Below are positions 8,801 to 62,800 of a stretch of 64,000 bases of DNA, piece after piece. Below the pieces are notes generated by a model, which worked only from the letters and a program-made list of their open reading frames with translations, searched no databases and was not told the origin of the DNA. This DNA is from Pocillopora damicornis (Eukaryota), in the NCBI RefSeq assembly GCF_003704095.1, contig NW_020847128.1:62001-126000 (forward strand). The letters run 5' to 3'. Positions within the stretch are counted from its first letter, which is position 1. Each line of letters starts with the position of its first letter. The position numbers and the translations under genes were made by a program.

Positions 8801-11800
8801 GCGAAGTGTATCGTATATATAAAATATCATCCAAGCAATAGAGGAATAATGATTTGCCGAACAAACGAAAGAAATGAACAGTGGGTTAATTTTTGGGTTT
8901 GTAAAGGTATTGACAAGTTTGATTGATGTTAAACGCTTTTGTACTCCTCCTATTAGCACAAACAAATTATAAGAGTTGAAAGATTATGTTCGGCCGCTTA
9001 CCTATCATCTCAATTTGATAAGCATGTGTATGAGAAGACATGCTTGATTCGTCGAATTTCGAACTTGAAGGTTACATGACTTTCTGGATGAGCTCGCATA
9101 ATAATGTAGGCGTAAAAATGAGAAAAGATTATAATAAGAGAAGTAGCAAAAAAGAATCTTTGAACGGTTTTTCTTCCGGCAATCGACCTTTGAACCAAAT
9201 GCTTCACTTTCGTTTAGATTTATCAACAATGTACGACATCTGATATCTATTTCAATCGACCATAAAAATGGATCGAGAGTTCAAAGTTTGTTTTCTCCTG
9301 ATTGGTTAGTAAAAGATTTGACCATCCAATATCACAGCCTGTCATTTCAATACATGTGCCGCACGTACCAAGCGTAATCAGCATTTCTAAAGGACTGTCG
9401 TTTAACAGCGATCGTCATCGTTTCTTGCCGAATCCATTCTCGTGTGTGTTACAGTGGACGGTCTGGTTAGTTTGGCTCCCGGAAACAAATCAGAATAATA
9501 CTTAGTCGTTAATGCTTTAAGAACATCTTAAATTTCTCCGACATTCCACGAGACAGGTAGCGCTTAACGTAGCTTAATCGACGAAGTTCGTGTCAAGAGA
9601 ATGTCCACGAGTTCATGTAGTGGGTCCGACCACACCTTATTCTTTTGTTCGATGTTTCGTTGCAACTTGTTCACAATCTGTCAGACGTTTCGCATTGCAT
9701 CTATGACTGCGACAAAATTTAGACCTAATCAGAAGGTGCGAACGGGTTGGATTCTTGTCAATTTTCTTATAACGACAATAGTCTGACTTTAAGAGTCGTC
9801 AATTTTTGAAATAACGACTTTTTTTTTTCAAGCGTCAGCAACGTCTTAAAAGAGGGCCGGTCAGCTGTGACTCACGCGTTCGTATTTAACCATGTAATGA
9901 TTCCACCTTTTTACCCTCTCTTCTTCTCTACTTTTTATTTCTGTCATTTAATTCACCACGTCCATTTTCACATTGATGCTCTTCACGTGTTGTCATTCAC
10001 TTATGAGATATTTTTTTCTTTTAAAAAGTATATGCTTCGATGCAATTGCTTTTGAAATAGAAAATGTAATAGGTTAGCCGTTGGAGTCTCATGAAGTTAT
10101 GGCAGCTGACTTTCTGGAAAAGCGAACTGAGACAACTTACGACGCTGAAAGCACGAATAAATTTTCTGATGAGCTCAACAAAGAAATGACAGATGAAACA
10201 GGTTGTTTCAATTTTTTAACTTACGAACAAAAATTTGATGAGCTTCAATCAGATTCTGCGGATTTTGTGACTACACCACGAGGCAAGGCGATAGCACCAA
10301 ATTCTGGGGCAACAAAGGAATTAAGGACGTCATCAACAGAAAAGTCCGAGACTCGACGCGTGACTGTTTCGATAAATACTCACGATGTTCCTGAATGACC
10401 TGCACATACCGAGTCGGTTGATGGTGCAACCAAGGATGGAAACACGTGCTCGAAGGGCTTCCAGGATCGCTCTCTAAATGGAAAGTGTATGCTGGTGGAC
10501 AGCGCGACTTGTTGTGCTTGTAACCAAGGAATGGAAAACTGGTATGCAAAATGTCGAAGAAAACAATAAGTTAACCGTAACTTTTATTTCCTCCATCCTT
10601 TTAGTATAGGTGGTGTCTCGTTTTGTCCACAACGGCTTGTTCTTGACTCTGGAGTCCCTAGAATTTTTGCGTGAATTTTTTTAGTTCTTTGCCATTCATT
10701 TGTTGAACAGAAGACCTCTGAAATTGAATATCATTTTTAATGCATGAAAAGCTGTTTATGCCCCCTCAGTCCAATACAAAGCAGTGAGTTAACTTTTTCT
10801 GACGTGCTGTCTTTTCTTTTCGTGTCAGTGGTACAGGTTTATCCACGATCGGCCCCCAGACCAAAAAGCCATGGAATCTATTATTTGAAAAGTATAAATG
10901 AACATTCAAACACGCTTGGAAGGAGCCATAAAAACCCAACAATTAATAATTAGAGAACTTTGCGATAAATGTTATGTAGCGTATAGTTTCGAACAAACTG
11001 ATACAAACTGTAAAGCCTTTTGCGAAACACTCGTTACATGATATGTGTAAATGACATCCCCTGTCATGTGATGCTTTTTTGTAGATTACGTTCTCCTCTG
11101 CCTTTTGCAGACATTACTGAATGTGAGAACGGATTCAAAGATTGCCATGGCAACTTATCCTGCGTCAATGTGCCAGGAAGCTTTTATTGTCATTGTCAAG
11201 AAGGATTTGCTGGAAGAGGAAAGCACTGCGAAGGTTAGAACCACGAAAAAAACAACAAACCTAAACTGTATTTGATAGTGGATGTGAAATATGATTTGGG
11301 GCTGTAACAACCCCGTAAACTCCGAAGATGTGAAAGTTTACCCCTATAGGCCTTAGACTGTGGCGTTTTTTTGCTACCCTCTGACCTGAGGAGGGAAGTT
11401 CTCACTTGGCGCTATATGTTTAAAGTTTTGCCTTTAGTAATAGTACTTTAGGCTGTGCGAGGAGATCTGCCTAATTTTCTTGCTAGCTTCCACATTTTTC
11501 TGTATGGATAGATTTTCTGTGGCGCGAAAGTCTCTGTAAGGAGAAAAAAATGAACCAAAAAGCGTTGAGGCTCTCAACATTTCAGTTCAGTGACACCTCT
11601 CCTTTAGTAGCGTGATACCAAGACAACCTTTTTCTTCAAGCATTGTGCCTGAAAAGGTTAGGCCAAGCAAACGACGACAAGATTGTCTTCATTTATTTTT
11701 CTCAAATTTTCTAACTACGTTTAATTTAAGAATTTGTTCATGCTTATCGTGCGTATATCGAGTTATGGATGCACGCGGAAAGTTTGGAGAGCACGAAAAA

Positions 11801-59800: not shown

Positions 59801-62800
59801 TAAACGAGGATTTTCTGGGGATGGTGTAGCATGTACAGGTTTGTATTTTGCTACTCATTGCTTTAATTTTGAGTTATCTTTACATCTTAGTCCAACTTGA
59901 GAAATACCTTTAGACGGCAGAAACAGAAGTGGTAAAGGTACTTAATTACGTTGTTTCCAGCATTAGCCCGTACTTAGGTTGTCTTATTTCAAAGCGGCCC
60001 TTCTGTTGAAAGCAAGAGCATGTGGTAATGTCTTTTTTCCCTCTCGATTAGATATCGATGAATGTTCGGCGGATACTAGTCCTTGTGACCGAAACGCAAA
60101 TTGCACCAACAGTAATGGTTCCTATAGCTGTACTTGTAAACAGGGATATGCTGGGGATGGCATCACTTGTACAGGTTTGTATTTACCTAAATGGGAAATA
60201 TCTATAGACAGCAGGAATGCAAGTTGTCAAGGTAATTTATACTGAGCAAGGTTGGGGTTTACACCTGATATAAAACGCGCTCAGGTTGACTGTTTGTCTT
60301 AAAGGCTGCCTAAATTTCTAAAAATGAGCAGCAGACGGTTCTTACAACTGTACTTGAAAACGAGGTTTCCGTGGAGATGGTCCGAATCAGGGTCGACCCT
60401 CCTCTGATGTCTTCTTTTCCTCTCTATTAGATATCGATGAATGTTCGGTGGATACCAGTCCCTGTGACCAAAACGCTTATTGCACCAACAGTAACGGTTC
60501 CTACAGCTGCACTTGTAAGCAGGGATTTACTGGAGATGGCATCACTTGTACAGGTTTGTATTTCCCTACATGGGAAATAACTTTAGACAGCAGGAATGCA
60601 AGTTGTCAAGGTAATTTATAACAAGGTTGGCGTTTACACCCGATGTAAAACGCGCTCAGGTTGGCTGTCTGTGGGTGCTAGAGATAATTTTGCTCAAAAG
60701 CAAGAGTATAAAAATGACGTCGTTGTAAAAGATCGCTTTGTGAACAAAAGTGCATAAATTTCTACAAGCACCCAGTGACACTTTTTGAGTGAAATTTCGA
60801 ATATCGATGAGTGCTTTGTGGATTCCAATCGCTGTGACAAGAAAACTGCATGCCTGCAGCAATGACAGCTCTTACAACTTTAATTGTCAGCAAGGATTTG
60901 CTTAGGATAGAAAACTATCTGAAGTTAGGTTTCATCGTGCCCATTCTTGGAACGAACATTTTTTGCATGTTCTATAATTTCTTCCATAACCAAGTGTAAA
61001 CTTGGTTATGGAAGAAAGAAAGGTGTAGTTAATTTCTCAGAAGGGGAGGGGGGGAGGAATTTGATCCGCAAGATTATCCTTCGCTCGTGATAATTAATTA
61101 GAATGTTTTCTCTTTGTAATCCTAATCGAGCTAAGGCCAAAGTTTTGCTTATTTTATATCTGTTAAATGACGCCGAGGTACTCTCCGATCAATATCGATC
61201 GATATCGATGAATGTTCTACGGATCCCAGTGCTTGTGACAAAAACGCAGACTGCATCAACACTGACGGCTCATACATACACGCATGTAGAGGTATCAGAA
61301 TTCAATAATGGCTAGGCGAAAGTTCGATTTCAAGTCTTAAAATCTTTTCAATTAAGGATAAAAAGGTCGCTAAAAGTATATTTCTTGTCCACCACCTTAG
61401 ATTTCGATGAGTGTCTTACAGAGCCTGGTTCATGCGGTGATAATGCCAATTGCAATAATACTGATGGCTCATACATCTGTTCATGTAAAAAAGGATTCAC
61501 GGGAGACGGCATAACCTGTGAAGGTAGGCGGGAGGTTATTATATTTATAAAACAACAAGATTTTAAGATGGCTAGTACTTGTAACGATTTCTGATCCTCT
61601 CCCTCAGAAGCCATATTCCATCTTGTCTGATATCAAACTATTGACCGATGAAATGGTCAGTCATTTCTAAATATGTAGAGGTTATGCTTCTGGCTGAACG
61701 AGATAACACAACAGCAATTAGTATTCTAAAAAAATGCAACATTCTGTAAAGTTTAAGAACCTTCCTGTTAAGGGTTTAACAGCTACTTTGAATGACATGA
61801 GTCTTAAATACCACTAGATATCGACGAGTGTTCAGCCGATAGCAGCATCTGTGATAAAAACGCGGATTGCAGCAACAGTAACGGTTCTTATAGCTGTGCA
61901 TGCAAACAGGGATTCACTGGAGATGGTTACGTTTGCCAAGGTATGAGATCTAAAGCTTGTTCATTCAAATTCATGCAAACGCGTCATATTTATGACATCG
62001 ATTTGTCGACAGAGAGACCTTTTACCGAAACGAATAATGAAATCGCCTTCCAATTCTCACCATTAGATATCGATGAATGCGCTCCAGAGACCAACCCGTG
62101 CGATGTGAACGCTAATTGTTCCAACAGCGAAGGTTCATACAGCTGCCGTTGTAGAGAAGGGTTTGATGGAGACGGAAAAAATTGTAAAGGTATTTTTTTA
62201 GGACCCATGTCAAGAGAAAATTTTCAGAAATCTGAATCGTTTATTTTGTACCTGTTACACTCAAAGTAATCTCTTCTATTCGATCTCACCAGATTTCGAT
62301 GAGTGTTTAACAGAACCTGGTCCGTGTGGTGATAACGCCAGTTGCAACAACACTGATGGCTCATACAACTGTACTTGCAAAAAAGGATTTACAGGAGACG
62401 GCATTACCTGTGAAGGTAGGCACCAAGTAGATACATTTTACAGTAAATGGTTTGTAAAAACCATTTTGTAAAACCGTATGATTTAAGATGGCTAATTACC
62501 ACGCTCTCCTTCAAAAAGCACACTCCATCTCGTCTGATGTCAAACTAATTGGTCAATGAATTGCCTAGTCATTACTGAATATGAAGTGGTTATGCCTCTG
62601 GCTAAACAAGATAATACAACAACAGTTATTTTTCCTGAAAAAACCGCACTATCTGTAAAGTTTAGGAACCTTAAAGGGTGTGGAAGTCAATTTGAATGAC
62701 ATAAGTCTCAAATACTACTAGATATTGACGAGTGTTCAGCCGACAGCAGCATCTGTGATAAAAACGCGGATTGCAGCAACAGTAACGGTTCTTATAGCTG

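Follow-up and report, generated by a model that had tools for sequence, protein, structure and literature searches.

A uromodulin-like gene of the coral Pocillopora damicornis carries relic exons among live paralogous EGF exons

Uromodulin contains a handful of EGF units and has a GPI anchor. Exon duplication in Dscam is said, by the title of one paper, to proceed by staggered homologous recombination. The death of repeat exons is documented in brown algae. Passages of the article by Zambounis et al. (PMC3341825) report that the NB-ARC-TPR and ROCO genes of Ectocarpus carry one repeat per exon and that inactivated TPR and LRR exons lie in their introns. According to the same passages the relics show stops, frameshifts, lost splice sites and truncation, and those of the TPR type lie almost all on the coding strand. 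For Dscam, parts of PMC3236188 state that the tandem exon paralogues of this one gene evolve by birth and death. Thus, the process is already known from brown-algal TPR/LRR exons and from Dscam, and the coral locus described here is an unusually dense new case.

The analyzed window comprises 64,000 nucleotides of the P. damicornis genome (assembly GCF_003704095.1, contig NW_020847128.1, positions 62,001 to 126,000 of the forward strand), and all coordinates refer to it. The Ectocarpus genes are multigene candidate intracellular immune receptors with 13–17 LRR exons in the example given and LRR relics that are often inverted (parts of PMC3341825). In contrast, the coral locus holds one extracellular ZP animal gene of ~110 exons, in which the relics lie on the coding strand only and RNA points to different live sets between samples. 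Dscam exons are mutually exclusive, whereas neighbouring intact coral exons are included serially, so that exon death shortens the protein and does not cause the loss of an isoform. With its EGF units, ZP-N and ZP-C domains, basic cleavage site and membrane anchor the gene resembles the uromodulin/GP2 type; coral paralogues of such ZP proteins are treated in parts of PMC13581030. It differs from uromodulin in having ~110 EGF units and, in addition, a C-type lectin, a VWA domain and a transmembrane helix with a tail. For EGF/ZP genes of corals, no description of relic exons was found in the available portions of the literature, and the available portions of PMC11378527 contain nothing on relic exons.

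A scan for splice sites and six Cys, cleaned by hand, revealed, within the window, 103 intact EGF exons of phase 1-1. They form an array on the + strand (11111..63800, 4214 codons) with 89 exons of the calcium-binding type and 14 others. All 103 have lengths divisible by 3 and phase 1-1 and are thus frame-symmetric. Intact EGF exons on the minus strand were not found. The array continues 3' of the window with six more EGF exons, a VWA exon, two EGF exons and the ZP-N and ZP-C domains, both of which are Pfam matches. After ZP-C come an RHRR site, a transmembrane helix and a short tail; the RHRR and the hydrophobic helix were read in the predicted protein P0191, and the membrane anchor looks transmembrane. 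Among solved structures the ZP part is closest to uromodulin (E 1e-22). A C-type lectin exon (7783..8164, + strand, phase 1-1; Pfam Lectin_C, E 1.8e-21) likely lies near the N-terminus of the EGF-array gene. With this putative link the domain order is C-type lectin, ~110 EGF, VWA, two EGF, ZP and transmembrane helix. The profiles used, none of them dedicated to D8C, gave no encounter with this domain in the gene. Two open frames, one at 10061-10570 and one at 10830-11040, which may have a PAN-like look, showed no Pfam match in 6/6 frames and no Atlas match, and in the whole assembly they match only themselves.

In order to detect damaged exons, a nucleotide HMM was built from the intact exons and run over the window at a threshold of E<0.01. 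This revealed 20 non-intact matches (12688, 22352, 28491, 29300, 31147, 35167, 39496, 40981, 41350, 41547, 54203, 56670, 57565, 58660, 58808, 58953, 59483, 60332, 60801 and 61202). Four short stubs (30362, 39710, 56579, 59657) were matched by the same HMM at E 0.03–0.3. The reversed window gave a best background match of E 5.7 and the minus strand one of E 1.2; minus-strand repeat exons as in the Ectocarpus ROCO type were not found. The count leaves out three matches cut by N gaps (34946, 58118, 58269), two intact non-calcium EGF exons (21246, 25980) and the very weak match at 30878 (E 0.29). Outside intact exons, an acceptor followed by a DIDEC-type motif occurred eight times on the + strand, never on the − strand and on neither strand of 68 kb of flank. 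This distribution supports three of the four short stubs. All 24 relics lie on the coding strand. Two further relics are located just past the window, and every relic lies inside the EGF array; the HMM found no match in 30 kb upstream, nor in the part of the 49 kb downstream that follows the final EGF. Since 95 intact EGF exons from the same scan start at or before 61291, the relic share in 10061-61291 is 24/(95+24), or 20%. The sequence-only reading had proposed about 25 pseudo-exons in 10061..61291 and damage to roughly one EGF unit in five. Both figures agree with the HMM result, with nothing EGF-like at 10061 itself. Its 18 named example positions are all among the 24 relics with the lesion it gave, and 60801 and 61202 carry further damage.

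The relics, all on the + strand, show diverse lesions. At 54203..54322 the donor GT has become AT and 0/12 invariant residues are lost. Several relics are 5' stubs: 22352..22428 (acceptor kept, invariant residues lost 0/7, E 1e-16), 28491..28534 (E 5.7e-6), 57565..57607 (first Cys missing, E 1.4e-4, spanned by X5 DNA), 58660..58708 (2-nt deletion, skipped by RNA), 39710..39735 (acceptor present, skipped by RNA), the short stub 59657..59682 (E 0.31, skipped by RNA) and 30362..30376, which consists of 15 nt after an acceptor (E 0.095); the motif test supports the last three. The 5' three quarters of an exon remain at 58808..58901, where the donor is missing and RNA skips. The 3' halves at 39496..39547 and 41351..41398 (HMM match 41350) retain a donor and are skipped by RNA, and a donor is also present in the 3' half at 56664..56720 (HMM match 56670, E 5e-10) and in the 26-nt 3' end at 56579..56604 (E 0.042), both spanned by X5 DNA. 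A 3' piece with a stop (60332..60385) is skipped by X15 RNA, and a middle piece with a stop (58920..58994, HMM match 58953) is likewise skipped. The relic 12688..12792 has kept its acceptor and shows an internal deletion, a frameshift and no donor (E 2.8e-5). At 40981..41091 the acceptor is deleted, 4 nt are missing and the donor is retained, and the full-length relic 41547..41667 carries frameshifts and a stop and has lost 6/11 invariant residues; RNA skips both. At 60801..60908 the acceptor is gone and a frameshift and a stop are present; mRNA skips this relic, which both X15 and X17 contain in unspliced contigs of low depth. The relic 61202..61277, without acceptor and 3' end, is skipped by X15 RNA. 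Two ghosts were found, one with stops and absent splice sites (31147..31209, E 0.0016) and one with indels, stops and no donor (59483..59594, skipped by RNA). The putative relic 29300..29374 is internally deleted and retains AG, GT and frame in 75 nt with 2 Cys (E 3.4e-8). The relic 35167..35259 is doubtful; it adjoins an N gap, and here the 5' 93 nt of an exon are joined to a 99% copy of 33913-34234. This copy (35260..35581, + strand) contains exon 35390 and represents a recent duplication or a mis-join. Two exon halves flanking an N gap at 58118..58313 on the + strand are not in the relic count, and RNA joins 58011>58420 over them.

The locus was compared with short-read DNA and RNA contigs from different individuals, possibly different species. 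This comparison covered the region 3' of 33850 with 18 of the 24 relics. In RNA contigs 13/24 relics are skipped and 1/24, namely 54203, is included. Among the best 15 of 23 joints, both runs showed 35824>36150>36864>37407>37804 and 38450>38655>39260>40261>40538>40821>41759. The best 15 of 146 joints comprise 58011>58420>59061>59716>60052 and later 61818 in both runs, and joints at 60431 and 61401 in X15 only; one side of the joint 58542>59061 is covered by just 27 letters. Spliced RNA thus passes over the orphan donors 39496, 40981 and 41350 and over the orphan acceptors 39710, 58660, 58808, 59483 and 59657. An X15 contig of 2088 nt fits 16/16 intact exons from 41759 to 51899 (1965 nt). Exon 54203, which lacks a donor here, is present in mRNA-depth contigs of both RNA samples, X15 and X17, and in X17 the next exon is an EGF exon that is absent from the assembly (0 matches at ≤2 mismatches). 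The intact-looking exon 59275..59397 (+ strand) is skipped by RNA contigs of both studies; the joint from 59183 to 59716 has 123 letters on its shorter side. This exon is either dead in the RNA-sampled colonies or alternatively spliced. At the RNA level, the live exon sets differ between samples at 54203, the extra exon and 59275. For the losses of the 54203 donor and of the extra exon, intron homology scores were within shuffles in 4/4 comparisons. The joint 52408>52940 does not count as evidence of skipping, since one of its sides has just 28-29 letters and exon 52683 is 97% like 52940. The joints 41071>37809 and 37929>34072 were discarded because they stem from cross-mapping of exons outside the compared stretch.

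Live exons showed a dN/dS of 0.17 over 71 nearest-paralogue pairs in codon alignment and of 0.16 over the eight closest, compared with 0.33 for relics against their nearest live exon. Invariant residues were lost at 9/1068 positions (0.8%) in live exons and at 28/147 (19%) in relics (p 9e-20). Codon comparison thus shows purifying selection on the live exons and relaxed constraint on the relics. Among the best-supported exon variants between samples, at least 26 codons were non-synonymous, at least 16 synonymous and none a stop, which indicates a constraint weaker than that between paralogues. The nearest paralogue lies at a median distance of 5 exons, compared with 26 in shuffles (minimum 14, n=5000). 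Identity of ≥90% to a paralogue is reached by only 9/89 calcium-binding exons, with a median of 74% to the nearest. Births are therefore mostly old, and turnover may not be at a steady state. Recent copies are an exon-plus-intron triplication at 51989..53066 on the + strand (52292, 52683 and 52940, exons 91-97% alike), a duplicated block of three exons with introns at 61399..63316 on the + strand (78% over 1041 nt) and the pair 60052/60431. Local clustering and block duplications suggest unequal crossover as a candidate birth route. Exon deaths have left clearer evidence than recent births, and most relics have the look of long-standing modules that have since died.

In six further EGF arrays from this genome, 0 relics were present among 153 units, versus 20/123 in the uromodulin-like gene (p 4e-8). 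These arrays were chosen from the top EGF_CA matches, which favours well-kept ones. C1873 and C3248 were dropped (<6 exons on one strand), as were two gap-cut matches, and L011-L017 were left out; 45 matches not called intact by the script, mostly for a long first loop, were judged by eye to be open EGF frames. The other calcium-binding EGF arrays, one of them fibrillin-like, likewise have one EGF per phase 1-1 exon with up to 75 units and, unlike the uromodulin-like gene, are relic-free. The turnover of modules in the latter, a working gene, is real and specific to it.

The reading that we hold with considerable confidence is that this expressed gene splices its intact EGF exons together and leaves the broken ones out, copies being likely gained and lost by local duplication and deletion. 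Single blocks likely appear and disappear without the gene losing its function. New copies may arise when adjacent paralogues recombine in a staggered fashion or when replication slips between them. Deaths would begin with a splice-site change or a partial exon deletion; the orphan splice site would be ignored and the remnant would decay. Most relics would have been alive as modules during much of their past. By analogy to uromodulin, the product is likely a surface-filament protein. Its ~5,200 residues would likely be cut at RHRR and assemble by ZP-mediated polymerisation into filaments whose EGF arms are very long and end in the lectin, which would place arm length under weak selection. Exon turnover is likely tolerated because the exons are frame-symmetric and the predicted stalk likely tolerates length change.

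It is highly improbable that the relics arose through chimeric assembly or the collapse of repeats. Four N gaps lie within the array, six relics are within 700 nt of a gap, and an X9 contig extends >2 kb into a 170-N gap. However, DNA contigs from other samples span 17 of the 18 relics compared, and in these long contigs the differences to the window are single letters scattered along the sequence: 21 in X1 over 35818-41888, and in X5 9 over 58581-61870, 2 over 56308-57954 and 13 over 53377-55324. Moreover, the same assembly shows no relic in the 153 control units, which include near-identical exons on C1899. A chimeric origin is thus refuted at the contig level for the 17 relics. It remains likely for 35167, the only relic with a clean duplication breakpoint: no DNA piece crosses its junction in X1 or X9, whose cover has a hole at 35155-35545 that proves nothing alone, and this relic and the adjoining 35260-35581 copy may be a mis-join. 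The sequence-only reading, which had looked to raw long reads for such chimeras, therefore stands on contigs for all compared relics except this one. Decay of the whole gene to a pseudogene, which could be read from the damage to one unit in five and the many non-synonymous variants, has practically no probability left. At the level of RNA and selection it is refuted by spliced RNA in two studies and by the dN/dS of 0.16-0.17, together with the absence of stops among 42 listed variant codons, intact VWA, ZP, cleavage site and transmembrane parts and a spliced ZP-to-tail product on record that is 100% identical to the locus. The claim that the gene is functional is borne out by the joining of intact exons, and a dN/dS near 1 throughout was not observed.

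It is very unlikely that the array generates Dscam-like diversity by alternative splicing with the relics as dead alternative exons. Dscam arrays do evolve by birth and death (parts of PMC3236188), and 59275 is skipped in both RNA studies. However, neighbours are serially joined in 10/10 joints at 35824-41759 (among the best 15 of 23) and over 57889-61818 except at 59275, and the 2088-nt X15 contig indicates serial inclusion and not mutual exclusion. A stronger competitor, to which we still give clearly less than even weight, is a shrinking array, in which an old expansion erodes under relaxed length selection; losses would outnumber the few births, and the relics would be their record. It agrees with the median paralogue identity of 74% and few recent copies, with a silent-site distance of relics to the nearest live exon (pS 0.49) that nearly equals that between live exons (0.58), and with the assembly lacking the exon used in X17 and the 54203 donor. 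Yet recent births are present (52292/52683/52940, the 61401-63335 block, 60052/60431), the other samples, too, seem to have lost an exon (X15 and X17 skip 59275), and purifying selection persists on live exons. Most of the mechanism is common to this reading and to gain and loss in a working gene. The three differences between samples uphold the earlier claim that modules are dispensable and turn over. It is rather unlikely that the gene is a hot spot whose whole EGF modules segregate as presence/absence variants among coral colonies or sister species, so that filament length and module order vary, and that diversifying selection beyond mere tolerance accounts for the contrast with the six relic-free arrays. 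Candidates for such selection are microbe decoy, self-recognition and gamete recognition.

The locus preserves within one gene graded exon deaths beside live paralogues, at least one of them recent in an exon still used elsewhere. This makes it possible to measure how fast and by which routes repeat proteins gain and lose domains, and in this short-intron coral, whose median intron measures about 290 nt, the neglect of orphan splice sites by exon definition can be tested. It also raises the question why the relic record is found in this array and not in six others, and it warns that array gene models differ between individuals.

Protein searches found no full-length relatives, which is no evidence of absence, and a 22-nt pattern had no match in metagenome_contigs. 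The VWA exon as query gave 1 match among 1548 candidates of ≤2000 aa and, among cluster representatives, exon-sized open frames at 60-74%. The 54203 exon as query retrieved 39 EGF proteins with a best identity of 82%.

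A nucleotide HMM was built from the 103 intact six-Cys EGF exons of the window, all of which (103/103) are of phase 1-1. It found 20 extra matches at E<0.01, which together with four short stubs give 24 relics, i.e. damaged exon copies, named here by their start positions; three gap-cut matches, two that proved to be intact non-calcium exons and a single very weak one do not enter this count. In the reversed window and on the minus strand the best match reached only E 1.2. A motif test gave 8 non-intact matches on the plus strand, none on the minus strand and none in the 68 kb flank, and backs three of the four stubs. 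Up to 61291, 24 relics stand against 95 intact exons, matching the one damaged EGF unit in five proposed by a sequence-only reading, which had described an exon graveyard at 10061..61291. All lesions named there were present at the respective relics, and census and lesions confirm the graveyard overall; EGF-like sequence was not found at the proposed start, 10061. Two further relics lie directly past the window (L001:2537-2600 and 3028-3085).

With one exception, the relics are very unlikely to be assembly chimeras. For 18 of the 24, those from 33850 onward, short-read DNA contigs of other samples were compared, and these run through 17 of the relics. Sample X5 covers 53377-55324, 56308-57954 and 58581-61870; X1 covers 35818-41888 with 21 differing letters, and X9 agrees piecewise. 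The scattered differences suggest that these contigs come from other individuals. The exception is relic 35167, in which the 5' part of an exon runs directly into a second copy (99%) of 33913-34234, next to a gap of 170 N (34776-34945). No X1 or X9 DNA contig shows its junction and the X9 contig extends into the gap by more than 2 kb; it is possibly a mis-join. This extension, together with further paralogues in the RNA samples X15 and X17 that are 90-95% like 35167, makes it likely that several more exons are hidden in the gap.

Six other calcium-binding EGF arrays of the coral's own 234-Mb assembly G000 (window at G000:C3763:62001-126000) were searched with their own HMMs. After two gap-cut matches were dropped, 108 called and 45 hand-read open units contained no relics. 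The contrast, 20/123 here versus 0/153 in arrays picked from top matches, has a p of 4e-8. The graveyard is specific to this gene, and this too speaks against an assembly-wide error. One array of 75 EGF exons on another contig (L018-L022, G000:C2202:332001-382000, minus strand) has no relics; in about half of its exons a long insert separates the first Cys from the second.

RNA runs containing window sequence were labelled coral or marine metagenome. From 33850 onward, 10 of the best 15 of 23 joints connect neighbouring intact exons, each in both RNA studies; the live exon 36150-36275 uses a GC donor in both. Joint 39382>40261 bypasses two relics and 40946>41759 three. Among the best 15 of 146 joints, 58542>59061, 59183>59716, 60174>60431 and 60553>61401 bypass eight more, the last two in X15 only. 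In total 13 of 24 relics were seen skipped, orphan donors and orphan acceptors alike, as exon definition would predict. Relic 60801 does occur in unspliced contigs from these runs, at low depth.

The dN/dS was 0.17 for live exons (71 nearest-paralogue pairs; 0.16 for the closest 8) and 0.33 for relics versus the nearest live exon, values biased in both sets by nearest-neighbour choice and with silent sites near saturation. The live value is far below the value near 1 of a gene decaying throughout and, with the spliced RNA joining intact exons, upholds the claim that the gene stays functional. Invariant residues were lost in 9/1068 cases in live exons versus 28/147 in relics. Among the best-supported between-sample variants, 26 of the 42 codons listed change the residue and none creates a stop.

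The nearest paralogue lies a median of 5 exons away versus 26 in shuffles, and one three-exon block and one exon-intron triplet were duplicated together with their introns. Staggered recombination would be a likely source of such births. Only 9/89 exons have a paralogue at 90% identity or more, and net shrinkage of the array is a live rival to balanced birth and death. Silent-site divergence of relics is almost as large as that of live exons. Had the relics never been live, the pooled dN/dS would be expected near 0.6; by rough arithmetic, the 0.33 found suggests that they were live during much of their existence. Module birth and death inside one functional gene is supported as an interpretation, the crossover mechanism excepted.

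Exon use differed between colonies. Exon 54203 has lost its donor base at 54323 in the window, yet a silent variant at 54270 occurs in contigs of X15 (depth 44.3) and X17 (depth 40.3) at depths equal to those of variants in flanking live exons; therefore the exon is part of both mRNAs. In X17 its end is spliced to an extra exon and this to 54658, restoring the pattern present just upstream (53180, 53388, 53882). Even with up to 2 mismatches allowed, the first part of the extra exon matched nothing in G000. Conversely, exon 59275, intact-looking and with splice-site scores not unusually low, was skipped in both studies (123 letters on the shorter side). These differences speak for the proposed turnover and dispensability of modules, but they may reflect either genotype or splicing, and the colonies may be sister species. 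Short interspersed intron repeats of very high read depth, some palindromic, were observed at 5768-5980, 7203-7402, 15429-15641, 21981-22189, 31490-31668, 44700-45000, 54350-54550 and 55290-55550, one of them in the intron where X17 carries the extra exon.

The array differs from Dscam, whose exons are mutually exclusive, by serial inclusion, and from the Ectocarpus LRR genes, whose relics are often inverted, by having no inverted relics. In the literature searched, which comprised papers outside subscription, the relics of this locus were not reported. The locus is a new case of an already known process, unusually dense in relics.

The gene lies on the plus strand, with a C-type lectin exon (7783-8164) that probably belongs to it and the EGF array from 11111 onward. 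Past the window follow six EGF exons, a VWA exon, two EGF exons, ZP-N, ZP-C, an RHRR site, a hydrophobic helix and a short tail. With the ZP-C exon as query, the spliced product on record P0191 was 100% identical; it spans ZP-N to the tail across introns and, among solved structures, comes closest to uromodulin. The nearest ZP-C relative in G000 is 39% identical, so the genome yielded no close second copy. The exons sum to a product of about 5,200 residues, with 4214 EGF codons in the window. Uromodulin-like and ZP genes have already been described in corals as tissue-specific (PMC13581030).

Upstream of the lectin exon, 5094-5160 and 6832-6889 were picked out by eye as a putative signal-peptide exon and short second exon. 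Between the lectin and first EGF exons, long near-open frames at 10030-10570 (with two stops) and 10830-11040, without a relative in Pfam, the Atlas or the own genome, are possibly decayed exons of a different domain. Fourteen non-calcium EGF exons are interspersed at intervals (18778-46690), a spacing that suggests old higher-order blocks. In exon 35702, codon 35728-35730 encodes an additional seventh Cys in the window versus Asp in X15, X17 and one X1 allele.
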